Virus record (IMG/VR): IMGVR_UViG_3300011429_000011
Span: 1 to 57,359 of that record
DNA from: a virus
Direction: 5' to 3' (one strand)
Length of the DNA: 57,359 nt
The position numbers and the translations under genes are program-made. How positions within the stretch are numbered: the stretch's first letter is position 1; each line of letters opens with the position of its first letter. This document shows, piece after piece, positions 15,025 to 57,096 of the stretch. The notes beneath the pieces were generated by a model that was not told where the DNA came from, ran no database searches, and worked only from the letters and a program-made list of their open reading frames with translations.

Positions 15025-15053
15025 AATATACCACAGTTTAAAACTGATTACAA
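15025..15053 (-). promoter_or_regulatory. conserved phage promoter P1 (TTGTAA-17-TATATT with CAGTTTTAAACTG spacer, TGn extended -10)
   Basis: Read on the - strand: TTGTAA tcagttttaaactgtgg TATATT. This is one of 11 near-identical copies. Confidence 0.6.
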
Positions 15054-15383
15054 GTCCGCAAATATCCGAGACCATGCATCGGCTGCAAACTTTAAGTTAA
15101 GCTGTTCGAGGAAGATTGCTGAAACACGCCAGCCTAGACGCTTCAGCTTTGCATGATTCTTTTCCGCGAGTTTCTGTTTGCGCGAATTGGGTCGCTGAAT
15201 CTCAACTATTCGCTTGGTTCGGGGATTTGCATAGTAGGCAATATATCGAGAACCCGCTTGGTCAAGGATAATCGTATATTGAGCTCTATAGCCTTTTGCC
15301 TCTAATTCAAGTTCATATTGACGGGGCAGGGTAGTGCTTACCAGTACCAATGAACGCGGACCTTTTGAACCTTGCTCTGCCAT
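15048..15383 (-). CDS. hypothetical protein
   Basis: 111-aa ORF, basic. Confidence 0.45.
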   Translation of the reverse strand: MAEQGSKGPRSLVLVSTTLPRQYELELEAKGYRAQYTIILDQAGSRYIAYYANPRTKRIVEIQRPNSRKQKLAEKNHAKLKRLGWRVSAIFLEQLNLKFAADAWSRIFADL

Positions 15384-15511
15384 GCGTTAAACCCTTTGTT
15401 TACAACAAGTTACAAGCTCGGCGTTCCACGTTGCCCTGTATTGGCGAAAAACGCTCCCCATGCTAGGGTATTAGGGGCAAGGTCAAAATGCCGCCTACGG
15501 CCTCCCAGGTG

Positions 15512-15541
15512 GGTCAAAATACCGCGCATTTGGCGCGTTTT
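15512..15541. terminator. bidirectional rho-independent terminator hairpin
   Basis: CCGCGC-atttg-GCGCGTTTT is followed by a T-run on the + strand. Preceding CAAAAT gives a T-run on the - strand. It lies between the 15570 gene end and the 15383 gene start. Confidence 0.45.
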
Positions 15542-15569
15542 GGCAGCTTTGCGCATGGAGTGGGTGAAA

Positions 15570-15971
15570 CTACTTCCGAACAGCCTTTTCGCGAGCCGCG
15601 GCGTTGAGTTTATCCCATTCGCCGCTGTCCATTTGTCTCTTGATGTATTCGTAGGCTGTGCGCTGATACCAACCGCCATCGCCACCGTTGATCGAACCGG
15701 GGAATGTGTCAGAGTCCTCGTGGCCCAAGAGCCACTTCCAGGCGATATAATGCGCCGTGGCCCGACAAACCGAGAGTCCACGTTCGTTCTCGATCTTCTC
15801 GAGCCAGAATGCCATATATTCCTTGGCAGTAAGGTCAATCGCTTCCAGAGGCATGACTTGCATTGCCTTTGCGACTTCAGTTTCTTCTGCAGTTAGATCT
15901 GCTTTGAGGAAAGGCTTGAGATGCTCGTAGTCGAGGCAGTTCAGATATTCCCCAGCTTCGAAGCCAAACAT
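15570..15971 (-). CDS. hypothetical protein (start at ATG 15971, 4 nt after upstream stop)
   Basis: The track ORF 15570..16058 is trimmed to an internal ATG to avoid an 85-nt overlap. Confidence 0.4.
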   Translation of the reverse strand: MFGFEAGEYLNCLDYEHLKPFLKADLTAEETEVAKAMQVMPLEAIDLTAKEYMAFWLEKIENERGLSVCRATAHYIAWKWLLGHEDSDTFPGSINGGDGGWYQRTAYEYIKRQMDSGEWDKLNAAAREKAVRK

Positions 15972-15972
15972 A

Positions 15973-16461
15973 TCATGTTCTTTTCTTTCCTGAGCGCGTG
16001 CGACGATTTCTTCTTGTATTCTTATGACGATTGCGGTTTCTGGCATGTGGCCTCTCATGGATCGGTTGCATTGTTATTCGACAACTGATGATACCAAGAT
16101 CTATTCGTTCCTCGAGTTTGATCACTGTACCAAAATGATCACTATTCGGAATTGGAATTACTTTGCCGCTGAACAGTGCATTGTGCATCTTCCTGATAAA
16201 ATTCTGCTCCGCGGTCAGAATGATGACATCTTTTGACTTTCTACATGGGGCCATATCGGTATCGTGACATTCACATTCCGGCGGACAGGTGCAAACCGCC
16301 GGAACTTCATTGGCATGATTGCAAAGCATCAGAGAGCGTTTCGGTCGAGTCTCTCGCTTTAAGGCTTCTGCGACAGCTTGCTGTATGTCATATAAAAATT
16401 TTGGACGTAGTCGCTGTAAAGCCTCATCTAAGAGCCTAACTTCACGTAATTTGATTTTCAT
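15973..16461 (-). CDS. hypothetical Cys-rich protein (CTCPPECECH)
   Basis: 162 aa, RBS GGGAGG. Possible zinc-binding motif. Arg-rich C-terminus. Confidence 0.5.
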   Translation of the reverse strand: MKIKLREVRLLDEALQRLRPKFLYDIQQAVAEALKRETRPKRSLMLCNHANEVPAVCTCPPECECHDTDMAPCRKSKDVIILTAEQNFIRKMHNALFSGKVIPIPNSDHFGTVIKLEERIDLGIISCRITMQPIHERPHARNRNRHKNTRRNRRTRSGKKRT

Positions 16462-16891
16462 TGGGTGGACCTCCCAGGAATTGAACCCGGCATATTGATT
16501 TCGTTGCGCCTCCGGCTCCTAGGACCTCGGGCCTGACGAGAATCATGGCTACGCTTTCCAGCTTGGGCAAGGTCCATAAATTTGCACCCGGTTCGTGGGG
16601 ATAGGACGAACCGGGAAGACCCAACTCTCTTTTCTGGAATCGGTAGAAGAGAGCGGAACCGACCTCACTTGGGACGGGTAGGAAGGGCACCCTCTGCGCA
16701 GCTCAAACTCGACCCGGATCTTTTTCGTATACGAGGGAAGATCCGGGAAAACCTCACAACCTATGAGCGTCCTTAGTTCTCTGCCCGAATAGCTTAGTGC
16801 CACGATCTGAACCGCGTTTTGTTGCCGGATGGATCACGGTCACCGGACGTTCTGGCCTCGGGCTTAGCGAGCCTTACTCACAGGTCGATCT
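16462..16891 (-). other. 430-bp region with no convincing CDS, rich in stable hairpins; possible leader/ncRNA
   Basis: The only ORFs are low-complexity and overlap each other. A 9-bp perfect hairpin CCCGGTTCG-n11-CGAACCGGG sits at 16586-16614, with other GC-rich inverted repeats. Confidence 0.3.
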
Positions 16892-17320
16892 CTACGCACG
16901 CCGTGAATTCAGAACAGCGTTCAGCCCATCGCGGATCTGCTCACTTTCTTTCAGTTTTCCCATCAGCTCTCCGCGTGTATCATCGATGTGATTGATCTCA
17001 AAACGTAGCATCGATTCAATTCCATTCTGCGCGTTGAGCTGCCGTCGAATCTCGATATTGCTGCGATCGTTCCAACGCTGGATGGTTGTCTCAGTAAGAA
17101 TCGGCTTGACGTTACGTGCCGCCTCTTGCTTCGCCATTTCTTCCACTTCGTGATCGATCCCAGCGAGATGCTCTTGATAGAGTGAGTCAGCCTCTTTCGC
17201 TGCCTTTGCTTTCTTCCGTTCGCGCTCTGCTCGCACCGCAGCGATTTTCGCTGCATTGCGCTTCCGAGTTCGTGTCGCCTTGCGCTTCATTGCAGGCGTC
17301 CAATGTGTCCCCTTAGTCAT
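16892..17320 (-). CDS. hypothetical basic coiled-coil protein
   Basis: 142 aa, RBS AGGAG. The N-terminus is Lys/Arg-rich. Confidence 0.5.
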   Translation of the reverse strand: MTKGTHWTPAMKRKATRTRKRNAAKIAAVRAERERKKAKAAKEADSLYQEHLAGIDHEVEEMAKQEAARNVKPILTETTIQRWNDRSNIEIRRQLNAQNGIESMLRFEINHIDDTRGELMGKLKESEQIRDGLNAVLNSRRA

Positions 17321-17601
17321 GATCTGCTCCTATAAGGTTCGGGGCCACGCAACCCATGGATTGCGTGACCCCTGCGCCGTGACGTTCGCCGACCGTCGGA
17401 TCAACCGACGGCTACCGGCAACTTTCACGGACGGTTACGAACGCCAGTGGCTCGCCGAGGAATTTTGGTTGGCATACTAGGGCAGTTCAGGGTCCCACTG
17501 AAGGGAATATCTACCGTTATTGCGTCGCCCCTCTTCCCAGTAGTGTCTGCGGTGATTATCTCACCGACTAGGGCTACCGACAACGAGCCACTGGCGAATT
17601 G

Positions 17602-19015: not shown

Positions 19016-19657
19016 CTATTTCGTATACACGACTTTCACTCGCGCTGTGAGTTCCACGCCTGCTGGTGGCTCCTCACCTTTCAACAGCAATTCCTTCGCG
19101 ATCGCATTCACAGTCTGCCACGGCAGCGCCAACGAATCCTCGAGCCCATTCTCGACCGCCCAGATGCGATTTGCCCGTTTGTCGTTGACTGTGGCGTGAG
19201 GCTCGTATTGCGTGCGGACCGAACCGCCATCCTCGAGCGCGATGTTGGTCGTGCCTTCAGCTTCGTACTGCTCCGCCAGAACTTGCTTGTAGGCCTCTTC
19301 GACCACATTCGTGATCTTTTCTTGCGCTTCGAGAGCGGCCTTGACCACGCGGACGTTCCGATATCGACGGGCGAAGGTTGAGGCGTAACGCTGGCCGTCA
19401 ACAGTGCAGATGAGTGCGTCGTTGATCACCTTCAGAAGCGCTGTCACTTCGAGGAGCAAATCGTCAAGCGCGTCCATGCTCAACTCTTTATCGGAGCTGG
19501 CTGTGAACTCTTCGGTGAATGGGCCAGGATCGTTCTGAGCCCTCGGTTCGAGGATTGCAGCCTTGACGCCATTGACCTTCGCCTGAAAATCTGGCTCTGT
19601 CCCGAGGGACCGTGGAAGAAGATCAATTACGTGTGCGTATTTGCCCTTTTTTCCCAT
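19016..19657 (-). CDS. hypothetical protein
   Basis: 213 aa, RBS GAGGAG. It lies ~35 nt downstream of promoter P2. Confidence 0.5.
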   Translation of the reverse strand: MGKKGKYAHVIDLLPRSLGTEPDFQAKVNGVKAAILEPRAQNDPGPFTEEFTASSDKELSMDALDDLLLEVTALLKVINDALICTVDGQRYASTFARRYRNVRVVKAALEAQEKITNVVEEAYKQVLAEQYEAEGTTNIALEDGGSVRTQYEPHATVNDKRANRIWAVENGLEDSLALPWQTVNAIAKELLLKGEEPPAGVELTARVKVVYTK

Positions 19658-19694
19658 CAGCTCCTCTGCTGCTAGTGAACGGCCAGTATACCAC

Positions 19695-19723
19695 GTTTAA
19701 AACGTTGACGCAAGTCAGTTACG
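19695..19723 (-). promoter_or_regulatory. conserved phage promoter P2 (TTGCGT-17-TATACT, CAACGTTTTAAACGTGG spacer)
   Basis: Same motif family as P1. The palindromic core here is ACGTTTTAAACGT. Confidence 0.6.
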
Positions 19724-22385: not shown

Positions 22386-22592
22386 TCATTCACTCCTATA
22401 TGAAATTGCGATATATCCATGGGCTTTGAGCCTTTCTTCTTGACGGTAGGCTTTTGACACATAGCCGCCGTTCTCATAAGCCTCAATCAAAGCGAGTTGG
22501 ACTTGATCCGTATATTCACTATGAAGATCTACCAGGACAGTATGGCCCTGCGGCATCTTCTCAAGCTTTTTGATCAATTCTCTGACAGTCAT
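22386..22592 (-). CDS. hypothetical small protein
   Basis: 68-aa ORF. Confidence 0.4.
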   Translation of the reverse strand: MTVRELIKKLEKMPQGHTVLVDLHSEYTDQVQLALIEAYENGGYVSKAYRQEERLKAHGYIAISYRSE

Positions 22593-22604
22593 CGGCCTAT
22601 CCTC

Positions 22605-24233
22605 CTATCGTCCAAGATGTTCACCATTGTCGGTAACCCACACGAGCGTCTGCTTCGCGCGGGTGATCGCGACGTATTCGATGTTCTGCTCTTCGATATT
22701 CCAGTTGCGCAGTGTGTCGGCCAAAATGAATACCCGTTTACGTTCCAGACCCTTGGCCTTGTGGACACTACTGCACGTGATCACGCCATCGTCGCCGAGA
22801 TTGTCCTTGTCGACGAACAATCCCTCGATGCGAGTGGTCATTTCATCAATGCTCTTGGCACCTTCCGCGAGCTCGGCCAGCATCTGAGCACGGTCGAGAA
22901 TTTCCTCGATCTTGGACTGGATCATTTTCTTCCGGCCATTGGTCGCCGCTTCCAGTTGGCCAGTCAGACGTTCGGTTTCACGACCGGCCCATCGCTCGAT
23001 ACGCACGAGAAGATCAGGAACGCTGCGTGCCCGGAGCTTGCGGATAAGTCCGACGATTCCCTTGCCAATGTCCTTGCCCTGAACCTTCGTGCGCTTGCCT
23101 GCGCGCAGGAGCTTCATCGCAATTCCAACAATCGGCGCATTCACGCGGGAAAGTACGAAGTCACCGGGGCCAGCGGCTGCAACGAGCGCGCTCGTATGGA
23201 TCTGTTGAATATCACCTTCCGGATTGGATTCGTGAGCGTTGAAGTCGGGTACGAAGCGCTGTGCCAACTCGACGATGACCTTACCACAACGGTAGGTTGT
23301 AGTGAGCTTGAGGACACCCGCGTGAAGTTCCTCCCGCAGACGGTCCATCGAGTTGGAATCTGCACCGCGCCATGCGTAGATGGCTTGTCGAGGATCGCCA
23401 ACTAAGCAGATGCGACCACCAGCCTTCAGGACGCCAAGACAAATCTCGAGCTGCGTAACGGTGAGGTCCTGTGTTTCGTCAACAACGATCAGATCGAACT
23501 GCTTCGTGAGCCAATGGTTGCGCACCGGCAGGAAGATCATATCACTGCCGTCGATGGTTGCACCGTTCTGGATGTTTGCGCCGAGCTCCATGGCTTCAAG
23601 AGCCTTCTGCTCGACGTATTCCAACGGGAAGCCAGAATTCGCCCACTCTTCATCTGGCTCACATTCAAATTGGATCGCGATATTGGTGAGATCCTCAAGC
23701 ACGCGAGCGTGCGGGGCCATTTCGCGACCTTTGGTGTGGAGCGTCGTGATTAGACGCTTGATCGCATCCGGTGCCGTTGCGCCACAGACCTTTTCGGTAA
23801 GCGCATCTGCACGGTCTGAGTTGAACGAAATCTTGATTCCGCTACGATAGCGACTGATGCAGCTCAATCCAACAGAATGGATTGTCTTCGCTTTGATGTG
23901 AGGAGGGGCACCGATTTCTTTCAGCTTGCCTTCCAGGACGAGCTGAATATCTTTGCCGAAGGCAGCAACCCAGATTGACCTCTCTGGTGCGCGCTTTGCG
24001 CCTTCCAAGATGGTCGTGGTTTTGCCAGTGCCAGCGCGGGCGATGACGACGAGATGGCCGTCTGCATCGATCTCGATGTAGTCGGTATCGGGATTCTCGA
24101 ATTCGAGATGCTCTCCGCCGCGTGGCTCGAAAGTAGAGCTCTTCGAGAACCATGCGAAGATTTGCTCTTGCTCGTTTGACCAACTGAATGTTTCGGGCAT
24201 GACCGACTTTCTGCCGGTGCGCCTGAGCGCCAA
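22605..24233 (-). CDS. UvrD/Rep/PcrA-family SF1 DNA helicase
   Basis: Walker A AGTGKTT, motif II VVDETQD, TYRCG, motif VI SVHKAKGLE. Confidence 0.85.
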   Translation of the reverse strand: MALRRTGRKSVMPETFSWSNEQEQIFAWFSKSSTFEPRGGEHLEFENPDTDYIEIDADGHLVVIARAGTGKTTTILEGAKRAPERSIWVAAFGKDIQLVLEGKLKEIGAPPHIKAKTIHSVGLSCISRYRSGIKISFNSDRADALTEKVCGATAPDAIKRLITTLHTKGREMAPHARVLEDLTNIAIQFECEPDEEWANSGFPLEYVEQKALEAMELGANIQNGATIDGSDMIFLPVRNHWLTKQFDLIVVDETQDLTVTQLEICLGVLKAGGRICLVGDPRQAIYAWRGADSNSMDRLREELHAGVLKLTTTYRCGKVIVELAQRFVPDFNAHESNPEGDIQQIHTSALVAAAGPGDFVLSRVNAPIVGIAMKLLRAGKRTKVQGKDIGKGIVGLIRKLRARSVPDLLVRIERWAGRETERLTGQLEAATNGRKKMIQSKIEEILDRAQMLAELAEGAKSIDEMTTRIEGLFVDKDNLGDDGVITCSSVHKAKGLERKRVFILADTLRNWNIEEQNIEYVAITRAKQTLVWVTDNGEHLGR

Positions 24234-24277
24234 GTCCGGACTTTAATATGACGGCGTAACTGCCGCCAACGAAAACA

Positions 24278-24306
24278 ATGATACTACAGTTTAAAACTGA
24301 TTGCAA
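24278..24306 (-). promoter_or_regulatory. conserved phage promoter P3 (TTGCAA-17-TATCAT)
   Basis: - strand: TTGCAA tcagttttaaactgtag TATCAT. The helicase start is ~45 nt downstream. Confidence 0.6.
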
Positions 24307-24315
24307 GCAGAAACT

Positions 24316-24618
24316 TTAGACGTGTATTACGATGCGTTTTTCCAAACCACACTGACAGATTTCATCATGGTTCTGCCAGATATGCCAGGAGCCTAGACCA
24401 TCTTTCTGGATCATGCAAACAAGGGGAACTACAGTGGAAATTGGGGGTTGTTCGGTTGTGACAGAGACTGCATCAACACGGATTGCTTTGACTTTTTCTT
24501 GATAAAGAGCTGGGAACCTCTCAAGTCGTGACTTTAGAACCGCGGTGATCTCTTGGACATCCGCATCGTCCGAAGCACGGACTGTAGCTTGCAATGTGAT
24601 CTCGTGAGTTTTCATCAC
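24316..24618 (-). CDS. hypothetical protein
   Basis: 100-aa ORF. Confidence 0.45.
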   Translation of the reverse strand: MMKTHEITLQATVRASDDADVQEITAVLKSRLERFPALYQEKVKAIRVDAVSVTTEQPPISTVVPLVCMIQKDGLGSWHIWQNHDEICQCGLEKRIVIHV

Positions 24619-26255
24619 TCCTCCGTCAGCGCTTTAATCCACGCTGAACATGTCCAAGACGCCAACTCTTCGTTTGTTCGTCGAGCTTTGGCAATGATAT
24701 GATCAATCGTCTTCTGACCGCGTGGCCCTTCTGCCACGATATCAAATGTGGAAACCGGATAAAGCTGGCCAGGTCGATCAACACGCGCCGCGGATTGTGC
24801 AGCTTTATAATAGCTGTAATCGCAACTCATATTAATGACTGTATGACAAGCCGTAAAATTGAGTCCGAGCGCCCCTGTTCCGTAGGTCCCGCCAACGGTG
24901 ACTGGTCCTGGAGGTGCTGTCTTGGGATTGAGTAAACGGAGAGCATCGGCTCGTTCGAGTTTCTTACCACGACCAAACATGGAGGGTCCAGCACAGCTAC
25001 CCCGCACAATTCCGGGATATCGTGCTGCATGGTCTGTAAAAAATCTTCTAAGTTCTGGGATAAATCGACACCAGACAAGGAGTTTGAGATTTGGATCGTT
25101 TTCAAGCCACTCTTCTTGGAGATCCAGAACAAAATCCAATTTCTCACGGCTCACTTCTTTCGTGGTATATCGAGGAGGTATAATGCCGTCGCTCGCTTCC
25201 AGCTCAGCTTCGGTGGACTCTTCCTCGACACCACCGACGAATCCGGAGGTTAGCTGCGAAAGTCGGAGTGAACGAACCGCGGCCTGTGCTGCAACTGCGA
25301 TCGTATTCTGTGAGAGGAATGCAACCATTTCCTCGCGCATCTCTTTATAGATACGCCAAGTCTCATCACTGAGCGTAACAACTCGCTGAACTGGCGGCAA
25401 CGCTTTTGGATAATCACGAAAAGCATCCTTCTCACGTCGAAGAATGTAGGGTGCCATCCGTCGTTGCATGTCTTCCAGATTTTGATATTGTGTGATCTGC
25501 TTCATCTGCCATCCGCCCATAATTGCATATCTTGCACGATAATGATAGAATGAACGACAGCCCATGATTGTTGGACTGAGGATATCGGCTTGCGTATACA
25601 TGTCCATCGGCTTACCGGGAGTTCCATTGAGCTCTACGACTTGAGAACACAACATGCGTAGAATCTTAGACACTCGGTAGGTCTCAGACTTGTGATTCTT
25701 CAACGCGCTGGATTCGTCGAATACGATCATTGTTCGAGGATTGCAGAGCGTTTTGAGCTCAGCTAATCTCTCTGAACGACGAATGAACTCATAGTTCGTG
25801 ATCACCCAATGTAAGAAGCGGGAGCCCTTCGGTGCATTACCCCAAGCTGAATTCCGCACATGGTATTCGTGAACAAGTTTGTATGGAATTGAATCGAAGG
25901 CATGGAGCGCAATCTCGCCGATATCTCGATCGAACCACACTGGTCGAACTGAGGCCGGGCAAATAATAAGAACACGGTCAATTTTATTAGCGAGAAATAG
26001 GAACTGCGCAGCAATGGCTGTCTGGGCAGATTTCATCCCACCCATCTCATCGCCGATGAAGAAATAAGGATTCGCCAATATTGCGCGAACTCCTATCTTC
26101 GCATGTTCCTTCACTGTGGACCATGTGCCATCTTGTAACAGCACTGGACGACAAAGCGAGAAGTCTGGTGGCGGAGCCAGCTTGACTAACGATTCAGGCA
26201 TCTTTGGGCTTTTCGGGTAGAGATACTTTAGACGGATAAATTCCCAGAAGCGCAT
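24615..26255 (-). CDS. SNF2/RAD54-family helicase-like DNA-dependent ATPase
   Basis: Motif I GDEMGGMKS, motif II VFDESSALKN (DExx-KN), motif VI QSAARVDRPGQ. Confidence 0.8.
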   Translation of the reverse strand: MRFWEFIRLKYLYPKSPKMPESLVKLAPPPDFSLCRPVLLQDGTWSTVKEHAKIGVRAILANPYFFIGDEMGGMKSAQTAIAAQFLFLANKIDRVLIICPASVRPVWFDRDIGEIALHAFDSIPYKLVHEYHVRNSAWGNAPKGSRFLHWVITNYEFIRRSERLAELKTLCNPRTMIVFDESSALKNHKSETYRVSKILRMLCSQVVELNGTPGKPMDMYTQADILSPTIMGCRSFYHYRARYAIMGGWQMKQITQYQNLEDMQRRMAPYILRREKDAFRDYPKALPPVQRVVTLSDETWRIYKEMREEMVAFLSQNTIAVAAQAAVRSLRLSQLTSGFVGGVEEESTEAELEASDGIIPPRYTTKEVSREKLDFVLDLQEEWLENDPNLKLLVWCRFIPELRRFFTDHAARYPGIVRGSCAGPSMFGRGKKLERADALRLLNPKTAPPGPVTVGGTYGTGALGLNFTACHTVINMSCDYSYYKAAQSAARVDRPGQLYPVSTFDIVAEGPRGQKTIDHIIAKARRTNEELASWTCSAWIKALTEE

Positions 26256-27248: not shown

Positions 27249-27791
27249 TCAGTAATTCCTCAGCTCCCAGATGAGAGTATTCCGCCGTGGTATCTTTCCA
27301 AGATCGTATGGGTATGTTGCGAACTCAATCGTGGCGTCTGGGTAAAGATCAAAGAGACATTCAATATCTCCGAAACTGTTTTCGCAACAGAAGCTACGAA
27401 CAATGGTTCTAGTTGATAGTCCTCTGTAGGGTCGCATACAACCTGCTGCCATTGCAGGTCGCATACGAAGACCTGTTCGAATTCCGAGGTATCCTTCCCA
27501 GCCAAAGATTCCTTGACAAATTTCACCTTGTAATTGAACATCGGTATCTGGGGCGGCTTCATCCATGATGAATCGTCGACCAGCATGCGACCAATCGTTG
27601 AATTTTGCGAAGAGATCGCTTCGAGGCACAACTGAATGAAGTCCCCCTCCCGCAATCCCAATTTCCCGAAATCCATAGTATGGACTCTCTGCGTCCCAAG
27701 CGTCTTGGATTGTTCGCCAGTTCCTGAGCGTGTTGCCAAGACAACCTCGCTCCATGAGCTCGTAGAAGTGAGACTTAAACCGAAGTTCCAC
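27249..27791 (-). CDS. hypothetical protein
   Basis: 180 aa. I chose this over the overlapping alternative-frame ORF 27260..27868, which is Ser/Arg low-complexity. Confidence 0.4.
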   Translation of the reverse strand: MELRFKSHFYELMERGCLGNTLRNWRTIQDAWDAESPYYGFREIGIAGGGLHSVVPRSDLFAKFNDWSHAGRRFIMDEAAPDTDVQLQGEICQGIFGWEGYLGIRTGLRMRPAMAAGCMRPYRGLSTRTIVRSFCCENSFGDIECLFDLYPDATIEFATYPYDLGKIPRRNTLIWELRNY

Positions 27792-28863
27792 CGACGCTCT
27801 CCGGCTTCTTTGGCTCTTCTCGTTTTTCGCGACGACGCTGCAACCACTCTCGACAAGCGCGGTTCCAATCGTTATCTACGCTCCCGAGAGTTAGAACCCT
27901 GTCTGCATCCCCGTATCTTTTCATCCGATGATATTCGTGTGCTTCCAAACAGACCGAAACTTCATGAGGCCAAGATCCCTTTGGAAAAATATGATAACCG
28001 GTATGCAATAGATCGTTATCTGCTAATGTCAAAATCTGTGCGATGTGTATATCGATCTCTTCTGGATTTTCCATTGGTGTATGATGCACACGTTCTTTGA
28101 ATGCATCATAGTAGCTACCAATGTAATCGCCACGATCGATCAAATTACGGATCGGTTCACATTGCTTCAGCGTTTCGAGATAGGCGTGCCAGTTCACACT
28201 CACCTGATACATCCGTCCCATCGGACAGCCAATTTTCAGAGCCATGTATTCGAGAAGCATGGAAAAATGGACGGCATTCGCGCCGTAGGCTCCCCAGATG
28301 ATATCGTTAGACCGGCAGAAGATTATTAAATCCAGCCTACCGATTTGATCACGCTGAAATGTGGCGGTCGTATTGCACGGAACATCTTTGCCTGGATTAT
28401 CCAAGTCAGTCTCAGCATCCCACATTTGTAGAATGCAACGACGATCATTTGGATCTTTCCGTAAGCGATCAGCGATCGCTCTCAATTGATCATAAGGTGC
28501 CGTTGGATGTTGTAAATCAAACCAATTGCGCCAACGAGCTCCGTATGCACCATGGAATGTATGGCCATCGTCAGAATAGCTCGCCATGTTCTTGGCATAT
28601 TTGACGACGCCAGCAAGATCGTCACGACCAGCTAGCATCCACAGCGATTCGTAGAGATGGAAGAATGGGTTAGCGTCGCGCTGCGACCAGAATAGGACTC
28701 GCTGCCACGGTTTGTTGTAGATCGTTGTGACTGGAACTGGTGAGATGCGGACTGGGCCGTTACGACTATCGCGATTGTAGCCCTCGTAGTGCAGATAGCG
28801 GAGCGCGAATGGCAGAGCTTCGTGGACGTTCTGCACAAAGAGAGTTTTCATTTGAAAATCCAA
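27775..28863 (-). CDS. thymidylate synthase-family enzyme (ThyA or deoxypyrimidine-monophosphate hydroxymethylase) with ~100-aa C-terminal extension
   Basis: …NDRRCILQMWDAETDL… (cf. ThyA RRxIxSAWNPxDL). Catalytic Cys in …DVPCNTTATFQ…. RSNDIIWGAYGAN resembles the ThyA RSCDVFLGLPFN region. Confidence 0.65.
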   Translation of the reverse strand: MDFQMKTLFVQNVHEALPFALRYLHYEGYNRDSRNGPVRISPVPVTTIYNKPWQRVLFWSQRDANPFFHLYESLWMLAGRDDLAGVVKYAKNMASYSDDGHTFHGAYGARWRNWFDLQHPTAPYDQLRAIADRLRKDPNDRRCILQMWDAETDLDNPGKDVPCNTTATFQRDQIGRLDLIIFCRSNDIIWGAYGANAVHFSMLLEYMALKIGCPMGRMYQVSVNWHAYLETLKQCEPIRNLIDRGDYIGSYYDAFKERVHHTPMENPEEIDIHIAQILTLADNDLLHTGYHIFPKGSWPHEVSVCLEAHEYHRMKRYGDADRVLTLGSVDNDWNRACREWLQRRREKREEPKKPESVGGTSV

Positions 28864-28965
28864 TCAAGTAATCGCACCATTAGTGCTGAAATGAGCATAG
28901 CTCGAAGACAAGAGAAGCAGACACAAATGCCCGGATCTCCGCAGAGCTTACAGGTTGTAAACCAC

Positions 28966-29661
28966 TTAGTCCAAGATTTTGGCGCCACTGTTCACCAATC
29001 TCTCCGGAGTTCCCCAGTCCTGGAAATTTGTGATGACATGCGCATATTTCGGCCCAGGATAATCATTCATGGCCATCGACAGATACGGCTCTTGACTATG
29101 ACGGATTGCTCGGCTGATTGCTATGTCCAGCGCAATCTCGAGCTTCCGAACTGAATTGAAGATGCGAATTCCAACGATCCCCCATTGAGAAATCGGTTCT
29201 TTCTCGACGAAGCGCGTTGGGAATGGGATTTGGTCAACTCGAGAGGCATTGGGGTCGAATGTCTGTGTAACTGCTACGACTACTTCCGCAATTTGCGAAT
29301 GTGTGATCATCTTGAAAATATCGATTGGATCTAGGACCATGTCACAATCAGCGATTAGGACAGCATCGTTAGCTGGGAGACCAATAATCGCTTGTCGAAT
29401 CGTATCAGCTTGTCCGATGGTCTCTATGACTATAGTTTTCGTACCCTTGTAGTCTTCAGGTCTTTCGACACCGGCTGGCAGTGCCGTCAGGACATATGGG
29501 TCCTCTACGGGCAGAGTTCCTCGAACATGGGCCAGCATTGATAGCGTTAGTCCATTTCTGTCTTGGACTTTTAGTAATGGCTTAATAGTCGAATAGCCGA
29601 CATCGGCAAATCGCTGAGATTGTCCGGCTGCTGGAATTATAGCCCACATTCGTTTAGACAC
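28966..29661 (-). CDS. sugar-phosphate nucleotidyltransferase-like (MurU/GlmU/RmlA fold)
   Basis: N-terminal signature AIIPAAGQSQRF, the G-x-G-x-R nucleotidyltransferase motif. Confidence 0.55.
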   Translation of the reverse strand: MSKRMWAIIPAAGQSQRFADVGYSTIKPLLKVQDRNGLTLSMLAHVRGTLPVEDPYVLTALPAGVERPEDYKGTKTIVIETIGQADTIRQAIIGLPANDAVLIADCDMVLDPIDIFKMITHSQIAEVVVAVTQTFDPNASRVDQIPFPTRFVEKEPISQWGIVGIRIFNSVRKLEIALDIAISRAIRHSQEPYLSMAMNDYPGPKYAHVITNFQDWGTPERLVNSGAKILD

Positions 29662-31990: not shown

Positions 31991-32193
31991 AATTCAGTTT
32001 GTAATACTGCTTGTCTTATGTTATCCATATTCGGAATATACAAGCCTTTGACGCGACCAGTATAGCCAATATCATTAATTTGTTTGATGGCGTCTTTCTT
32101 TACAACTTCAGAGATTTCTAAAACCGATTTATCTCTGAATTCGTGAAGATCTACGTCTACTTCTATGAATAATCTAATCCGTAGCATATTTCT

Positions 32194-45059: not shown

Positions 45060-45626
45060 TTAATAACGACCTTTAAGGGTTGAGACTGGAATACCTGTTT
45101 TGACTGCCCAACCCGCAAATGTCAAAGATTCTCCTCTGAATGTTAAAGTCACAAGATTTTTGGATTCTTTTAGACGAATATGTGCTACGTTTTTTAAATG
45201 AGTTATCGTATGCGACAAATAATTCCGATGCGAAAACTTTCTACCCTTAGTATGAAATCTATCCGAAAGACCGCGAGTCTCACTGTTTGTACGAAATACA
45301 GATTTTAGTTCTTCCGACACAAAAGAAGTCTTTTGAGGAACCTGGAGTATCTCACAAATTACAGATTTTTTAATTCCGTGCGCCTTAATCCAATGTTGAG
45401 AAAGAGATTGGAATTTATCTTGTCCGCACCACCAACATCTACCAATTCTAATCGATTCTTGCAATTCTTGTCTCGTTGGATCGTTAGAGGAATCAATTCT
45501 CTTTAGTAGAGTGATTCTTCTATTCCTTTCGCGCGGAGTTGTAGAAAGGCCCGTCCGATTATAGATCGATCGTCCAGTTCTGTTTCCAGCACCTGAAGAT
45601 CCAAATCCGCCTATTAATTTTGGCAT
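45060..45626 (-). CDS. HNH homing endonuclease (free-standing) in an AT-rich island
   Basis: …RIGRCWWCGQDKFQSLSQHWIKAHG…. Start at ATG 45626, overlapping the upstream stop (TAATG). The local sequence is visibly AT-rich relative to its flanks. Confidence 0.5.
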   Translation of the reverse strand: MPKLIGGFGSSGAGNRTGRSIYNRTGLSTTPRERNRRITLLKRIDSSNDPTRQELQESIRIGRCWWCGQDKFQSLSQHWIKAHGIKKSVICEILQVPQKTSFVSEELKSVFRTNSETRGLSDRFHTKGRKFSHRNYLSHTITHLKNVAHIRLKESKNLVTLTFRGESLTFAGWAVKTGIPVSTLKGRY

Positions 45627-46672
45627 TAGCGATTCACTCGATAGACCTTGTTCTTCGGGACGCGGAACGGCATATTCTTCGGTCCTTTGAGGAACGGGCT
45701 CACCCAGATGAGTTTCCGCTGGATCATGTTCGGACCACACGGTTGCTGTCGCCAAAATCCATCAACTTCCCAGCGGCAAGACCAGTTGACTTTCTTCATC
45801 TCCTTCTGGATCAGGAGCTGCTCAGCGGTTGTAGTTTCGGGCTTCTCGACACGTCGCAGATTGATAACTTTGACGTGGTCGAGAGACTGTTCGGTCTTGC
45901 GGTTAAATTCCTTACGACGATGGCGTTCGATGTGCCCGGCTTCCTCGACTACGATTCGCTGATCTAGCCATGCGAGGCCAGCTAGAATGAATTTACAAAC
46001 TCCACTAACTGCAATTCTGAGATTATCCACCGCATCTGGAGGGATTAACAGTTCCTCATCCCTCTTATTCACGAGCTTCATATCGCATTTTGCTAACATC
46101 TCTGCGATAGTGTCGCCTTCTTTCCAACTACCAGTGAGGGATGGCCATGTCATAAAGGCGGGGATGTTATGATCACTCCAACCTACCATGTATAATTCAT
46201 TAACGGGAGGGATCCCAGCGTGTAACACCTGCTCGAACTGATTGATCGGCGAGCCCGCTGGGATGGTGATTCTATCAGGTTGAAAAGTGAACCAGCCCAT
46301 CGATAGGGCGCGTATTCCAATCTCTTGAAAGCCGGTCCGTTCGAATTGTTTGAGCGGAAGAGGTTGCTCAAAATGCCACCATGCAGCATCAGTGTTCAAA
46401 TTCCAAGTGCTGATTTTGGAATCGTCTGGGATGCTATGGCTAGCTGATAAAACAGCGCTCATCGTCTCAGCATTCCAAGCGAACGGAACGGCAGCTTTGA
46501 GAAGAACACGCGAAACAGAAAGAACCGCTTTCTGATCTAATCTCATTTCTAAAGTATCATAGCTAGGCCCGCCACGAGAGCAATAGTCGAGAGCAGCTAT
46601 CTGCCGCTCAATCGCATCGCGCCACGGTGCGTTCTTACCCGGACCGTGAACTAATTGTGGATGTTGTTCCAT
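45626..46672 (-). CDS. hypothetical protein (leaderless from P7)
   Basis: 348 aa. The ATG lies 6 nt after the -10 of P7. Confidence 0.5.
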   Translation of the reverse strand: MEQHPQLVHGPGKNAPWRDAIERQIAALDYCSRGGPSYDTLEMRLDQKAVLSVSRVLLKAAVPFAWNAETMSAVLSASHSIPDDSKISTWNLNTDAAWWHFEQPLPLKQFERTGFQEIGIRALSMGWFTFQPDRITIPAGSPINQFEQVLHAGIPPVNELYMVGWSDHNIPAFMTWPSLTGSWKEGDTIAEMLAKCDMKLVNKRDEELLIPPDAVDNLRIAVSGVCKFILAGLAWLDQRIVVEEAGHIERHRRKEFNRKTEQSLDHVKVINLRRVEKPETTTAEQLLIQKEMKKVNWSCRWEVDGFWRQQPCGPNMIQRKLIWVSPFLKGPKNMPFRVPKNKVYRVNR

Positions 46673-46678: not shown

Positions 46679-46708
46679 AGTATACTATGGTTTTAAACTG
46701 GATTGCAA
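46679..46708 (-). promoter_or_regulatory. conserved phage promoter P7 (TTGCAA-18-TATACT)
   Basis: - strand: TTGCAA tccagtttaaaaccatag TATACT. It is embedded in the 3' end of the upstream gene. Confidence 0.55.
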
Positions 46709-47068
46709 CATATTATTTCTGAATCCTGCACTATGCCATTCCAGTTCTTCAATCTCTTGTCGGATCTGGAAATACTTTGCAGTCCACGCTGGATCTCCGA
46801 CCTTACCGCCAACCGAGTTCACCGCGCACGTATGTAAGGTGCAAATGGGTCGGAAATGTGGCGGCAGAACACAGCCGAGTGGCGACATGAATTTCAGTGT
46901 AGGATGGTCGGTCGTGGGATGAACCCAACCGTGCTCTCTTATCCAATCCTCGGCCATGTCGCAATACATCGAATCACAACAGCTATGAGGAACGCGGCAC
47001 GTATTTGCGCATTCCGGAGCTGTCAGCTCCGACATGTCTTTATACAACTTTATGAGTTTTTTCTCCAT
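46685..47068 (-). CDS. hypothetical Cys-rich protein
   Basis: 127 aa with many Cys/His residues (CANTCRVPHSCCDSMYCD…). Confidence 0.45.
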   Translation of the reverse strand: MEKKLIKLYKDMSELTAPECANTCRVPHSCCDSMYCDMAEDWIREHGWVHPTTDHPTLKFMSPLGCVLPPHFRPICTLHTCAVNSVGGKVGDPAWTAKYFQIRQEIEELEWHSAGFRNNMLQSSLKP

Positions 47069-47346
47069 CCATTGGCCTCTTCCTCGAATCGTGCTGCTTC
47101 TTGACGCAACATGTCGGAGAGCTTTAAAAGACGATCACGATTACCGATTGCCTCGGCCTTCTTGACCATGTCTGGCAAATCTTCCGGCCAGAGACTATTC
47201 GACGGCGTTACGTCTTCAGTTGATTTCTCGAGTAGCACCAGCATCACTTCGTGAACAGTGATACGCTGTTGACGCGCCAACGTCAATAATTTCGCGTGAA
47301 GTTTGGCTGGGAGGACGATATGCCAGCGTCTATCTTGTTTATTCAT
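47050..47346 (-). CDS. ribbon-helix-helix (CopG/Arc-like) regulator
   Basis: …WHIVLPAKLHAKLLTLARQQRITVHEVMLVLLEK…. Confidence 0.5.
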   Translation of the reverse strand: MNKQDRRWHIVLPAKLHAKLLTLARQQRITVHEVMLVLLEKSTEDVTPSNSLWPEDLPDMVKKAEAIGNRDRLLKLSDMLRQEAARFEEEANGWRKNS

Positions 47347-48491: not shown

Positions 48492-48923
48492 TCAAACACG
48501 GAAGCCGCGACGACGGCACTCACGAATCATCATCGTCAACGCAACGAGACGCTCCTCGGTAGCATCGAGATACGGGACGGAGCCGAAGGCATGGACCAGC
48601 GTGCGCTCGATGAAGGATACGGTGTTACGGAGATGCTCTTCCGTCATATCACGTGGTGCAATGAGCTCACCGTTGCGCATCTTCCAGCGATAGTTGTCGC
48701 CATTCAGGAGCGCGTTGTGAGAGTTGTAGAGATTCTCATAGTTCTCTCGCGCATTTTGCAGATGTGACTGCGTAGCTTCGAGTTTGGCTCGGAGACTCTT
48801 GACGGTATCGCGGATCACGATACGTCTGTGGATGTGGACTTTCGGCTTTGCCTTGCGATTCTTTGATTTTGCCATAATCGTAATAACGCCGGGATCCCCA
48901 ACCCGGATAGGCAGCATACTCAC
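48492..48923 (-). CDS. hypothetical protein, first gene downstream of P8
   Basis: 143-aa ORF. Confidence 0.5.
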   Translation of the reverse strand: MSMLPIRVGDPGVITIMAKSKNRKAKPKVHIHRRIVIRDTVKSLRAKLEATQSHLQNARENYENLYNSHNALLNGDNYRWKMRNGELIAPRDMTEEHLRNTVSFIERTLVHAFGSVPYLDATEERLVALTMMIRECRRRGFRV

Positions 48924-48971: not shown

Positions 48972-49000
48972 GCGAACTACAGTATACCACAGTTTAAAAC
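48972..49000 (-). promoter_or_regulatory. conserved phage promoter P8 (TTGCTA-17-TATACT)
   Basis: - strand: TTGCTA tcagttttaaactgtgg TATACT. It is divergent from P11. Confidence 0.6.
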
Positions 49001-49109
49001 TGATAGCAATAGTGGGTTTAGACTAAAAGGAGCTCCTAGTCCATGTGATATCTAGCTGAGGGTGCCTGCGAATCCAACATTATTATATGCGCGCGTGTAG
49101 GGTCGCGAA

Positions 49110-49138
49110 AAAATAATACTTGCATTCCAGTTTAAAAT
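49110..49138 (+). promoter_or_regulatory. conserved phage promoter P11 (TTGCAT-17-TATCAT)
   Basis: + strand: TTGCAT tccagtttaaaatgtgc TATCAT. It faces P8 across a divergent control region. Confidence 0.55.
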
Positions 49139-49252
49139 GTGCTATCATGTTTATCCTGCTTGGTGAGGCATAGTGCCCCAACCAAGTTCGCAATTCTGAT
49201 TACCCGGGATTGCGGAGCCAAGCACCATCACTTACAATTCACGGGGTAATTC

Positions 49253-52511: not shown

Positions 52512-52746
52512 ACACCACGCCTACTTCCAGCAACGGAAGAATCATCCCAGCTTCGAGAGGAAACGAGCGTTCGTCCTCGAACATCGCGAGCTCTGGCTCT
52601 GTGCGAACGGTAGTGTTAACGAAGAAGGCGTGACAGAGGTCGCAAAGAAAGCTGTGGCGCTGAAGATCTGGACTGTAACATTATCCGATACACGATTCTC
52701 GATACGCAATCATATTCAAGAGATCCTTGGGAGACCAAAGGCGTGA
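52504..52746 (+). CDS. hypothetical protein
   Basis: 80-aa ORF. Confidence 0.4.
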   Translation: MNKHHAYFQQRKNHPSFERKRAFVLEHRELWLCANGSVNEEGVTEVAKKAVALKIWTVTLSDTRFSIRNHIQEILGRPKA

Positions 52747-52967
52747 CTATTAAAGAACGTATCAAAGTTGAGCTCTCGACAAAACCATATCAGACAGCGA
52801 CAGCACTCGCTCGTCGCCTTGATCTGACTCCTGGTAGTGTAGCCTCTGCTATCCATCAGCTCTGGAAGGATAATCAGATCATCCGTGAGAAGACGGAAAC
52901 GTTCCACGGTCCTCGTGGTGGATTCCTGTATAGTTTGCCATTCCATGGAAAGTTGGTTGGTCAATGA
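52743..52967 (+). CDS. winged-helix (MarR-like HTH) DNA-binding protein
   Basis: …LSTKPYQTATALARRLDLTPGSVASAIHQLWKDNQIIRE…. Confidence 0.45.
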   Translation: MTIKERIKVELSTKPYQTATALARRLDLTPGSVASAIHQLWKDNQIIREKTETFHGPRGGFLYSLPFHGKLVGQ

Positions 52968-53514: not shown

Positions 53515-53515
53515 T

Positions 53516-55550: not shown

Positions 55551-55586
55551 CTTCTGATGTTAGCTAAACGTCAAACAAGGAGCGTT

Positions 55587-56053: not shown

Positions 56054-56082
56054 TTGCGTCGAGTTTAAAACTGTGGTATCGT
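56054..56082 (+). promoter_or_regulatory. conserved phage promoter P9 (TTGCGT-17-TATCGT)
   Basis: TTGCGT cgagtttaaaactgtgg TATCGT. Confidence 0.55.
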
Positions 56083-56103
56083 GTGCTGGTAGGGAGGTAG
56101 GAA

Positions 56104-56364
56104 ATGGCTGAGCAACTCACACCCGAGCAGAAGCAGAAAGCTCTCGATGTCATCAGCGCCATCGCGGATTATATCCAGGCGATGTGCGAGCAGAGTCAGA
56201 AACGCGGGCTCCCCGGCTTGCCGTCCGGTGAGCTCTACGCGGTTCTGATGGCGACTGGGATGGGTTACATGGAGTATCAATCCTTCATTGGCACCCTGCA
56301 GAACATCGGCGCGATCCGCGTCAAGAACAACTGCATCATCTGGCAAGGACTGCCGAGGAGCTGA
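56104..56364 (+). CDS. hypothetical protein
   Basis: 86 aa, RBS GGGAGG. Confidence 0.5.
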   Translation: MAEQLTPEQKQKALDVISAIADYIQAMCEQSQKRGLPGLPSGELYAVLMATGMGYMEYQSFIGTLQNIGAIRVKNNCIIWQGLPRS

Positions 56365-56365
56365 C

Positions 56366-56542
56366 ATGGTGGACTCAAAAGGTCAACAGAAGCGCAAGTA
56401 TCTCGTGGTCTGGGAAGGATGGGTGGAGGGGACGAGCGCTGCGGATGCGTGCGCCACCGTCGAGGAGGCGATTGCCAAGACGCCTGAGTTTGTCGAGATG
56501 GATGACTGCGAAGTTGACGACCCGGAGGGAGAGGAGCTGTAG
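56366..56542 (+). CDS. hypothetical small acidic protein
   Basis: Start MVDSKGQQKR with RBS GAGGAG. Trimmed from the track ORF 56288..56542. Confidence 0.4.
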   Translation: MVDSKGQQKRKYLVVWEGWVEGTSAADACATVEEAIAKTPEFVEMDDCEVDDPEGEEL

Positions 56543-56640
56543 TCCGGCCATCTGGCCGGATCGCCCTATTCAGCTTGATGTCAGAATCTTTCTGCGCATT
56601 CGCCTCGCCGTGTGGTATGCTTGTAGTTGGAGGTAGGCAC

Positions 56641-56931
56641 ATGATCAGTGAAGTACGAACGCTCGTTGCGGACACGCGGCTCATCGACATCGAGGATACC
56701 GATGGCACGGCATTTTGCGACGCCAGCGATCTGATGCTTTCGCCGGGCGTATGGCCGGAGAAAATCGTGATCGTCAACAACGCCATGCCGAAGTCTCACT
56801 TCGCAATTGGCGCAGGCACGATTCTGACTCGCGGCGACCGCACCGAGCGCGCCGGGGAACTGGTCGGCGTGACCTACGTGAGCGAGGACCCTCGAACTGC
56901 ACTGCGGCGGTTGTTCGTCGCGAACGATTGA
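56641..56931 (+). CDS. hypothetical protein
   Basis: Start MISEVRTL with RBS GGAGGT. Trimmed from the track ORF 56575..56931. Confidence 0.45.
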   Translation: MISEVRTLVADTRLIDIEDTDGTAFCDASDLMLSPGVWPEKIVIVNNAMPKSHFAIGAGTILTRGDRTERAGELVGVTYVSEDPRTALRRLFVAND

Positions 56932-56937
56932 AGCTGA

Positions 56938-56968
56938 GGCCGGGGAGTCAATTCCCGGCCTTTCTTTT
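56938..56968 (+). terminator. rho-independent terminator
   Basis: GGCCGGG-gagtcaatt-CCCGGCC followed by TTTCTTTT. Confidence 0.55.
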
Positions 56969-56980
56969 GCCCTGACGAAT

Positions 56981-57055
56981 CAACTTGACATCTAGTTGAA
57001 GTATTGAACTTGCTGAAGTTCTGAAATTCTTGAAATTCCTGAGTCAACAAGATTC
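56981..57055. repeat. GAAATTCT/TTGAAGT direct-repeat array B (between terminator and promoter P10)
   Basis: caacttgacatctagttgaagtattgaacttgctgaagttctgaaattcttgaaattcctgagtcaacaag. Confidence 0.5.
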
Positions 57056-57067
57056 CCAAAATAACGC

Positions 57068-57096
57068 TTGCGTCGGTTTAAAACCTGTGGTATGAT
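57068..57096 (+). promoter_or_regulatory. conserved phage promoter P10 (TTGCGT-17-TATGAT)
   Basis: TTGCGT cggtttaaaacctgtgg TATGAT. Confidence 0.55.

Follow-up and report, generated by a model that had tools for sequence, protein, structure and literature searches.

A 9-bp palindrome in the spacers of eleven predicted promoters of an uncultured soil phage

Eleven predicted promoters of the non-structural region

The subject of this analysis is a stretch of viral DNA of 57,359 nucleotides (nt), positions 1 to 57,359 of the IMG/VR record IMGVR_UViG_3300011429_000011 and hereafter the window, in which a promoter-like sequence of about 29 base pairs (bp) recurs eleven times with a palindrome, GTTT-W-AAAC (W being A or T; hereafter the dyad), placed between its -35 and -10 hexamers. 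The source is an uncultured tailed soil phage whose family is widespread in soil and rhizosphere. Identical proteins are found on contigs of 73,272-73,475 nt, and the window represents most of a genome of about 73.3 kb. It is laid out as follows:

1-13249, plus strand: tail genes
13348-48923, minus strand: replication and DNA-metabolism genes
49253 to the end of the window, plus strand: primase block

The motif is limited to the non-structural part of the genome: a further 9.4 kb of head genes, preceding the window start, has no copy, and at least 22.6 kb of structural genes are free of it. The eleven sites, together with the terminator preceding the last of them, are:

P1, 15025-15053, minus strand: TTGTAA-TCA-GTTTTAAAC-TGTGG-TATATT; dyad at 15036-15044
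P2, 19685-19713, minus strand: TTGCGT-CAAC-GTTTTAAAC-GTGG-TATACT; dyad at 19695-19703, 1 bp nearer the -10
P3, 24278-24306, minus strand: TTGCAA-TCA-GTTTTAAAC-TGTAG-TATCAT; dyad at 24289-24297
P4, 33096-33124, minus strand: TTGCAA-TCG-GTTTAAAAC-TGTGG-TATGAT; dyad at 33107-33115
P5, 37722-37750, minus strand: TTGCAG-TCA-GTTTAAAAC-TGTAG-TATACT; dyad at 37733-37741
P6, 40019-40047, minus strand: TTGCAA-TCT-GTTTAAAAC-TGTGG-TATCAT; dyad at 40030-40038
P7, 46679-46708, minus strand: TTGCAA-TCCA-GTTTAAAAC-CATAG-TATACT; 18-bp spacer; dyad at 46690-46698
P8, 48981-49009, minus strand: TTGCTA-TCA-GTTTTAAAC-TGTGG-TATACT; dyad at 48992-49000
P11, 49120-49148, plus strand: TTGCAT-TCCA-GTTTAAAAT-GTGC-TATCAT; imperfect dyad at 49130-49138
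P9, 56054-56082, plus strand: TTGCGT-CGA-GTTTAAAAC-TGTGG-TATCGT; dyad at 56063-56071
Intrinsic terminator, 56936-56962, plus strand: 11-bp stem followed by a T-run, ending the transcription unit just upstream of P10
P10, 57068-57096, plus strand: TTGCGT-CG-GTTTAAAAC-CTGTGG-TATGAT; dyad at 57076-57084, 1 bp nearer the -35

The relaxed pattern TTGNNN-N2-6-TTTAAA-N5-9-TANNNT matches these eleven sites and no others on the two strands of the window, with a chance expectation of 0, which bears out the count of eleven near-identical copies, eight on the minus and three on the plus strand, made in an earlier reading of the DNA without database searches (the sequence-only reading). Eight of the positions given in that reading were correct; the other three were displaced by 9-10 nt, P2 having been put at 19695-19723 instead of 19685-19713, P8 at 48972-49000 instead of 48981-49009 and P11 at 49110-49138 instead of 49120-49148. 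Narrower queries recover less or differently: the strict form of the 29-mer with up to three mismatches finds only 4 sites in the window, and the 13-mer CAGTTTTAAACTG with up to two mismatches gives 15 strand-matches against 0.73 expected. A generic scan of the window for TTGACA/TATAAT yields 14 matches against 15.8 expected, with no overall promoter-like enrichment, so the signal is a specific extended motif and not a general excess of promoter-like sequence. Of the 14 TTTAAA hexamers in the window, 11 fall within the promoter sites. The remaining three compare with 5.5 expected under a Markov model, and pooled relatives are similar; on these counts, avoidance of TTTAAA through restriction or titration of a binding protein was rejected.

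All eleven sites lie at gene junctions and face the downstream operon, as had been claimed, and five of them are no more than 10 nt from the upstream stop codon. P2 drives a Pam3 gp33-like gene (19016-19657, with the Shine-Dalgarno sequence GAGGAG), P3 a UvrD-type helicase gene (22605-24233), P4 the gene for 5-hydroxymethyldeoxyuridine (5-hmdU) DNA kinase and the thymidine-modification operon, with an ATG 11 nt past the -10, P5 the gene of a CxxCxxCC protein, PolA and the genes that follow, and P6 a DUF7168/metallopeptidase-like gene (38814-39971). The back-to-back divergent arrangement of P8 and P11 is likewise upheld, with the -35 boxes 110 bp apart: the leftward member, P8, drives 48492-48923 and the genes after it, and the rightward member, P11, a YozE-like gene and the primase/VapE gene. 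The gene downstream of P9 begins with an ATG at 56104 preceded by the Shine-Dalgarno sequence GGGAGG. P10 stands about 100 nt past the strong terminator and drives 57169-57657, a gene extending past the window end.

An alignment of 30 non-redundant sites, taken from the window and from relatives fetched by protein homology, defines the promoter anatomy. An A-rich tract at about -45 to -41 resembles an UP element. The TTG of the -35 is invariant and usually extended to TTGC, as in 10 of the 11 window copies; TTGCAA agrees with the consensus TTGACA at four of six positions, and the class form TTGC(A/G)(A/T) is followed by two to four variable bases before the dyad. Between the dyad and the -10 stands TGTGG, which fits the TRTGn/TGn extended -10 and is still conserved in those promoters of the relatives that have no dyad. 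The -10 is TATAAT-like, with TATnnT in all eleven window copies. The spacer measures 17 bp at 28 of the 30 aligned sites and, within the window, everywhere save in P7 (18 bp). The near-consensus hexamers described by the sequence-only reading are confirmed as promoter anatomy; its TGn extended -10, at -15/-14, applies to 8 of the 11 copies only, P3, P5 and P7 having TAG. Taken together, the eleven sites look like genuine promoters of the sigma70/sigmaA type, that is, of the host-polymerase class.

The dyad is an odd palindrome of 9 bp centred at about -22 and invariant in the window save for P11 (GTTTAAAAT). Its central base is A in seven window sites and T in four, and both orientations of this base are found across the aligned sites. 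The dyad centre lies 10 nt before the -10 in 24 of the 30 sites, 9 nt in three and 11 nt in three; since it slides by 1 bp in either direction with the spacer length kept, the dyad behaves as an independent module abutting the extended -10. Conservation had earlier been ascribed to the whole 17-bp spacer. The independent element amounts to only 9 bp, and TGTGG belongs to the TRTGn extended -10. The 13-bp dyad CAGTTTTAAACTG proposed at the same time has to be shortened as well, its outer CAG/CTG arms being present in about half of the window copies, and the supposed PmeI site was an error: GTTTAAAAC is a 9-mer with an extra central base, and the PmeI 8-mer GTTTAAAC is absent from the window. 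A literature search for GTTTAAAAC returned primers only.

A further property of the promoters concerns the start of translation. An ATG lies 6-8 nt past the -10 at 3 of the 11 sites, against about 0.13 expected by chance (our own estimate). At P1, whose -35 is overlapped by the stop codon of the upstream gene, the ATG at 15018 is 6 nt past the -10 and opens an open reading frame (ORF) of 116 codons; at P5 it is 8 nt past the -10 of a near-leaderless ORF of 108 codons, and at P7 6 nt past that of an ORF of 348 codons (45626-46672). This spacing gives the appearance of leaderless transcripts beginning at the expected +1, and the mRNAs with start codons at 15016-15018, 37711-37713 and 46670-46672 are predicted to be leaderless or nearly so. 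An ATG close behind the -10 recurs at many promoters of the relatives, and the arrangement suggests a host that translates leaderless mRNA efficiently. At several promoters a hairpin with a GC stem and a loop of 5-6 nt (AAUACC, AUACC, AAUCC and AGUUAC types) is found 10-15 nt past the predicted start: in the window at 24250-24267 (minus), 39994-40009 (minus) and 57110-57131 (plus), and, of the same type, at about 10775, 11690 and 13780 of the related contig L052 and also in L024 and L046. It may be a shared RNA element of the 5' untranslated region, serving stability or protein binding; an Rfam scan of the window was empty, leaving the hairpin unmatched, as was a tRNA scan of the window.

The dyad as a separable part of the promoter

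Relatives were collected by a motif scan of IMG/VR and metagenomes followed by protein-anchored, alignment-based retrieval. The dyad occurs in the window and in these lineages:

Lineage A (L052): primase 66% identical to that of the window
Lineage B (L054/55, L058-60): primase 52% and PolA 47% identical
Lineage D (L068-70, L106/107): PolA about 46% identical
Lineage L086 (L086): PolA 42% identical

Across these five lineages, at a primase or PolA identity to the window of 42-66%, only GTTT-W-AAAC and the polymerase elements are invariant. The flanks are unrelated, and the bases between the -35 and the dyad vary (TCA, TTG, ACG, CCA, CTG and others). Orthologous promoters retain the dyad: P3 corresponds to the helicase promoter of lineage D (L068 513) and P6 to the promoter at 1603 of lineage B, ahead of the homologue of gene 38814. 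Judged from this comparison, the dyad is under selection.

Neither the outer CAG...CTG palindrome as a part of the site nor a cruciform was retained, because the arms are unconserved in lineages A, B and D. The same loss of the outer arms speaks against a hairpin promoter of the N4 type, with a stem of 5-7 bp and a 3-nt loop: the nine conserved base pairs leave a stem of 3 bp with a 3-nt loop.

The phage has no close cultured relative. Megablast with 20 kb of the window gave no match among cultured phages, for which the best PolA identity was 27%, and nothing on promoters is said in the article on Pseudomonas phage Lydia and the Mesyanzhinovviridae. In a motif scan of 185,579 reference bacterial and archaeal genomes (GTDB) no genome had the motif in more than one copy, and hence no prophage or host copies are known; the scan produced only three single-copy matches, in gut Clostridia, which we take to be chance or unrelated strong promoters.

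Does the polymerase need the dyad? A dyad-independent pattern (TTG, the spacing, GT[AG][GC] and TAnnnT), for which we estimate about 0.4 chance matches per 57 kb, has 12 matches in the window, namely ten dyad sites, P11 with its GTTTAAAAT and the site at 35025-35054; P7 falls outside the pattern owing to the CATAG before its -10. The additional site is the following:

35025-35054, minus strand: dyad-free promoter-like sequence, TTGCAG-N18-TATACT in the same frame, within coding sequence, 134 nt upstream of the gene for a ribbon-helix-helix (RHH) protein

This site is possibly an internal promoter, possibly a coincidental match. In the 31 kb of lineage B, four dyad promoters are interleaved with eight that have the same upstream tract, -35, TGTGG and -10 (mostly TAGAAT) and whose 12-nt spacer cores are mutually unrelated, for example CCGGCAGAATTC, CTGGCGATGTTC and TTCCCGGGAACC. 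Lineage A has five promoters with the dyad and three without, and lineage D four with it and one variant. Spacers that lack the dyad vary freely, which means that it is dispensable for the polymerase; it labels only some of the promoters, a regulon, and this is the strongest support for the inference that something other than the polymerase reads it. The claims that the spacer element is unnecessary for polymerase recognition and that a second reader is implied are sustained by these promoters, which share the -35, extended -10 and -10 frame with unrelated spacers and do without the dyad as an add-on. Taken as a whole, the sequence-only interpretation is partly supported, and its central inference of a second reader holds.

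The two classes of lineage B promoters alternate every 270-800 bp at 22500-26100 of the lineage B contig (L055 13400-17000), one combining the dyad with a TATCAT/TATAAT -10, the other lacking the dyad and carrying a TAGAAT -10. Each promoter in this block precedes a small gene, giving a string of near-monocistronic units.

The quality of the dyad also depends on the operon. The promoter of the primase operon is degenerate in the window (P11) and in lineage B (19032, GGTTAAAAAAC), and in lineage A (L052 4702) its spacer has no dyad, an exact dyad being found midway between the divergent -35 boxes. The promoter ahead of the g34888-like and RHH genes is degenerate in lineages B (TTTTAACCG), D (GTTTGTAAC), E (TTTTAAAAC, shifted), F (GTTTGCAAC) and G (GTTTAAAAG); in the window the sole candidate promoter upstream of the RHH gene is the dyad-free site at 35025-35054. 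As read from their dyads, the primase-operon and RHH-operon promoters are consistently weakened, a case of position-specific tuning.

The dyad has a polyphyletic distribution in the phage family, and similarly distant lineages have entirely different promoter types. Each such lineage has a multi-copy promoter of its own: a 70-bp cassette with an upstream terminator in L078 (4099-11831), a promoter of the type GGGTACTTGACA-N18-TATAAT in L102 (18100-21209), -35 boxes of the ACTTTACTTT type in L088 (4700-14800) and GCTATACTGTA in L091 (2995-20798). The promoter type appears to track lineage or host. In lineage C, a relative without any TTTAAA, about 16 iterons of the form TGTCGG-N4-ACGACTGA stand directly upstream of the primase gene (L056 9065-9580, equivalent to L083), and this array is probably a replication origin.

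Candidate readers and competing explanations

Three proteins of the window had been proposed as regulators, of which only the first has gained support:

34565-34891, minus strand: Arc-like RHH protein of 108 amino acids, assigned by homologue profile and synteny
47050-47346, minus strand: putative second RHH-pattern protein of 98 amino acids, assigned by sequence pattern alone
52743-52967, plus strand: small protein with sub-threshold MarR/winged-helix matches

The protein encoded at 34565-34891 has no direct Pfam or PHROG match. A profile search recovered six homologues, one of which, P0002, passes the Pfam cut-offs for Antitox_RHH (32.5 bits against 27.2) and RHH_1, and the best PDB matches of the family profile are Arc, Mnt, 56B and CopG-type proteins in the Arc register, the match to Arc being weak (E 0.01-0.3). 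The gene order PolA, g34888-like, RHH, g33835-like and 5-hmdU kinase (HMUDK) is found in six lineages. The RHH protein is present in the dyad lineages represented by the window, B, D and L086, and the predicted DNA-facing strand residues F/Y9, G11 and H13 are invariant in dyad lineages. Where the RHH protein has A at strand position 11 (L075 and L077), TTAAAAAC replaces the dyad in promoter spacers; (G/C)TTAAAAAC stands in the spacers in either orientation at about 4633 and at 9396 of L075 and at 2356 and 8516 of L077, and that 8-mer does not occur in the window, B or D. The residue at position 11 and the spacer motif may covary, on the strength of two lineages only. On these grounds the RHH protein of 34565-34891 is the most plausible candidate for the dyad reader. 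Its family (34565-34891 and P0002-P0007) ends in a conserved acidic-hydrophobic tail, EEDVPLPL/F or ...LPF, which we take to resemble the C-terminal tip of bacterial SSB and which may, by that analogy, be a docking peptide for a partner protein.

The other two proposals fare worse. The product of 47050-47346 has no Pfam or PHROG match and no detectable homologue in the relatives, and its single-sequence AlphaFold2 model (pLDDT, the predicted local distance difference test, 60) is too poor for a fold search; 52743-52967 has no homologue in lineage A, which has the dyad. The family of g48492, the first gene after P8, was considered as a dyad-specific factor and rejected, given homologues in L103 and L104, both without any TTTAAA; its AlphaFold2 model (pLDDT 80) found no significant fold match in the PDB, and Pfam and PDB profile searches were uninformative. 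A Pfam scan of 57 ORFs of the window, with some small ORFs and the roughly 16 kb of the genome beyond the window not covered, found no sigma, RNA polymerase, MerR or MotA-like domain. A spacer activator of the MerR type was rejected on this result and because the spacer is an optimal 17 bp, not 19-20 bp.

We believe, a little more than we doubt, that these promoters form a phage regulon with the operator inside the promoter, the dyad being the operator of a small dimeric regulator, likeliest the phage's own Arc-like RHH protein. A two-fold symmetric site overlapping the core promoter, as in operators of the RHH type, is present. A small dimeric DNA-binding protein would read the two GTTT half-sites symmetrically and ignore the central base. 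The dyad centre at about -22 is one helical turn from the centre of the -35, which places it on the polymerase face, so that a bound protein would block or trap the polymerase; a major-groove binder such as the RHH beta-ribbon would compete with RNA polymerase, exclude it or trap it. The whole set of early and middle non-structural units would be switched together, as a timed shut-off or feedback graded by dyad quality, and the promoters with a weakened dyad, those of the primase operon and of the operon with the RHH gene, would respond last or not at all.

Several observations weigh against this explanation. Arc, MetJ and omega use two or more dimers, and one site of 9 bp is little for an RHH protein to bind with high affinity. 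Each promoter has one 9-bp dyad with no second copy nearby in the window, so that adjacent sub-sites for cooperative dimers are not available; Arc and the plasmid repressor Reg576 use at least two sub-sites, which makes the single dyad a real weakness of the RHH proposal. RHH homologues also occur in about ten lineages with other promoter types and no dyad in the 10-22 kb sampled (L074-77, L083, L087-89, L091-92 and L099), and a third lineage with A11, L089, does not fit the covariation of residue 11 with the spacer motif. Among the lineages compared no phage protein co-occurs exclusively with the dyad; g48492 at first looked lineage-restricted and, like the RHH protein, belongs to a family found beyond the dyad lineages. 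Dyads outside any spacer number three in about 300 kb, near the chance number of about 2.3 (our own estimate), and the near-fixed position of the dyad in the spacer fits equally an element read by the polymerase itself.

The last point leads to a rival that we regard as possible and doubtful: that the dyad is an intrinsic strength element of the strongest promoter class, its flexible TTTAAA step and flanks being sensed by the holoenzyme through sigma, the beta-prime zipper or bendability. Its nearly constant distance from the -10, its almost complete restriction to promoters and the failure to find an exclusively co-occurring regulator lend this some credence, and early promoters of phage T5 also share spacer similarity. 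A precedent exists in E. coli sigma70, which senses spacer sequence or conformation at about -18 via R451 (PMC3130263). The main argument against a purely polymerase-intrinsic element is the coexistence in the same genomes of same-frame promoters with unconstrained spacers. Furthermore, the terminal G and C of the dyad are invariant, which an element based purely on shape would not need, and the flip of the central base and the slide by 1 bp are odd for an asymmetric contact with the polymerase. Two of the three spacer-free exact dyads sit in divergent control regions (L052 4683 in lineage A and L068 436 in lineage D), upstream of the -35; in lineage D it lies 25 bp from another exact dyad, that of the leftward divergent promoter. 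Nor is the composite promoter multi-copy in any host-like genome.

The dyad might also be a site that the phage exploits for binding by a nucleoid-associated protein or global regulator of its host, with a distribution that follows host range. The polyphyletic occurrence of the dyad and the different promoter types of similarly distant lineages suggest host adaptation, and here too it counts that no phage protein tracks the dyad exclusively. We consider a host factor unlikely, given that the composite motif is not multi-copy in any reference genome and that the consistent weakening of the dyad at the RHH-operon promoter fits autoregulation by the phage better. To our knowledge, although no comparison was run, the dyad is unlike the sites of IHF, Fis, CRP, DnaA, CodY and LexA.

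We attach still less belief to the idea that the dyad senses the modification state of the DNA. Seven of its nine base pairs are T:A, so that both strands present thymines to the major groove, and the phage has genes for hypermodifying thymidine (see below). The binding of a protein that reads this groove, for instance the Arc-like RHH protein, would differ between parental, fully modified DNA and newly replicated DNA with 5-hydroxymethyluracil or no modification, and the activity of the promoter set would be coupled to replication and modification status, a cis-encoded switch from early to late. TF1 of phage SPO1, which prefers hydroxymethyluracil DNA, is comparable in spirit.

It is very improbable that the similarity is merely historical, a promoter cassette having been copied or gene-converted with the spacer hitch-hiking on it without function. 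The cassettes of about 70 bp in L078 are nearly identical at every base, and promoter copying therefore does occur in the family. In the window, however, divergence has affected the flanks, the last two bases of the -35, the middle bases of the -10 and the 2-4 nt next to the dyad, but not the 9-mer itself, and orthologous promoters keep the dyad at about 45-50% protein identity. That a phage sigma factor or an appropriator (of the T4 AsiA/MotA or SPO1 gp28 type) reads the extended motif, which the sequence-only reading had entertained, is scarcely credible, because conservation beyond the hexamers is its only support and stands against -35 and -10 hexamers near the host consensus, a -35 not replaced by an activator box, the use of the same hexamers by dyad-free promoters, and the lack of sigma, polymerase or MotA-like domains in the ORFs scanned.

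Other genes of the phage and comparison with known systems

The operon behind P4 holds a thymidine-hypermodification set at 27775-33084 (minus strand), a pathway that has been described (PMC8989533, PMC5889632):

27775-28863, minus strand: thymidylate-synthase-like gene, probably a dUMP hydroxymethylase
28966-29661, minus strand: MobA-like nucleotidyltransferase
30301-31077 and 31232-31990, minus strand: two paralogues of the TET-associated glycosyltransferase (TAGT)
32194-33084, minus strand: 5-hmdU DNA kinase

The virion DNA is probably hypermodified at thymidine, to judge from these genes; relatives swap methyltransferase and radical-SAM genes into the set. A large ORF of 852 amino acids at 41642-44200 (minus strand) carries domains of the eukaryote-type Major Vault Protein (MVP_shoulder, E 2e-26; Vault_3; Band_7), and a tblastn search of deposited phage records found relatives of it only in three records of uncultured megaphages, with about 42% identity. 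Two paralogues, at 40206-40568 (minus strand) and from 57169 to the window end (plus strand; to 57657 in L061), combine a small N-terminal beta-rich domain with a long Ala/Lys-rich tail resembling histone H1, and may be DNA-binding proteins; lineages A, B and C also have homologues, often as duplicates. Past the terminator that follows gene 57169-57657, at about 2560-2760 of L061 (340-540 nt past the window end), there is a non-coding stretch with two copies of CCGACGTCAACCTGA, located where the early rightward block gives way to the late genes. The interval 56575-56931 is not on record as a called gene.

If the operator interpretation is right, a compact cis module, a promoter of 29 bp with a putative operator of 9 bp, organises the whole non-structural programme of uncultured phages whose DNA is probably modified. 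Because sister genomes have the same promoter frame both with the dyad and without it, they provide natural controls for the effect of a short spacer palindrome on transcription, and the parts could serve as orthogonal switchable promoters. Were the reader to sense thymidine modification, DNA hypermodification would be linked to gene timing; otherwise, the phage adds one more example of a known regulatory design.

That design, a dispersed regulon of operators embedded in promoters, is already well known; the present case has an unusually short single-dyad site and belongs to a phage family with predicted thymidine hypermodification. Among the closest likenesses are Arc and Mnt of phage P22 at Pant and Pmnt, small phage RHH repressors that bind an operator placed inside a strong sigma70 promoter, between its -35 and its -10; the RHH family of the window shares their register when aligned with them. 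The operator of Arc is 21 bp long, bound by a tetramer and confined to one divergent promoter pair, whereas here a single 9-bp dyad is repeated at no fewer than eleven promoters across the genome. Several promoters under one short conserved site and one regulator are likewise found with the C1 operators of phage P1, the stoperators of mycobacteriophage L5, the inverted repeats of phiC31 and the KorA operators of RK2 (GTTTAGCTAAAC), the KorA half-site GTTTA resembling the half-site here. These systems belong mostly to temperate phages or plasmids, and their sites are 12-17 bp long or asymmetric, overlapping the -10 or lying in transcribed DNA. Homology to C1, gp71 or KorA was not detected in the present phage.

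Also among the closest documented designs is that of the Bacillus plasmid p576, in which several strong promoters, whose genes are expressed when the DNA enters a cell, are under the control of the RHH repressor Reg576, through short repeated motifs upstream of the -35 and in the spacer, and the operator layout sets the sensitivity (PMC6294495). Two Reg576 dimers bind cooperatively to an operator made of a pair of 7-bp heptamers (PMC6294495), whereas each phage promoter described here has one palindromic 9-mer. Appropriation through the MotA box of T4 differs in that the consensus-like -35 is kept here, and the scanned ORFs contained no AsiA/MotA-like domains. The sensing of the spacer by R451 of sigma70 and the shared spacers of the T5 early promoters have in common with the present case that a spacer can tune strong promoters without a second protein. 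They involve, however, one or a few positions near -18 and AT-richness, while the element of the soil phage is an invariant 9-bp palindrome ending in G and C and dispensable in sister promoters.

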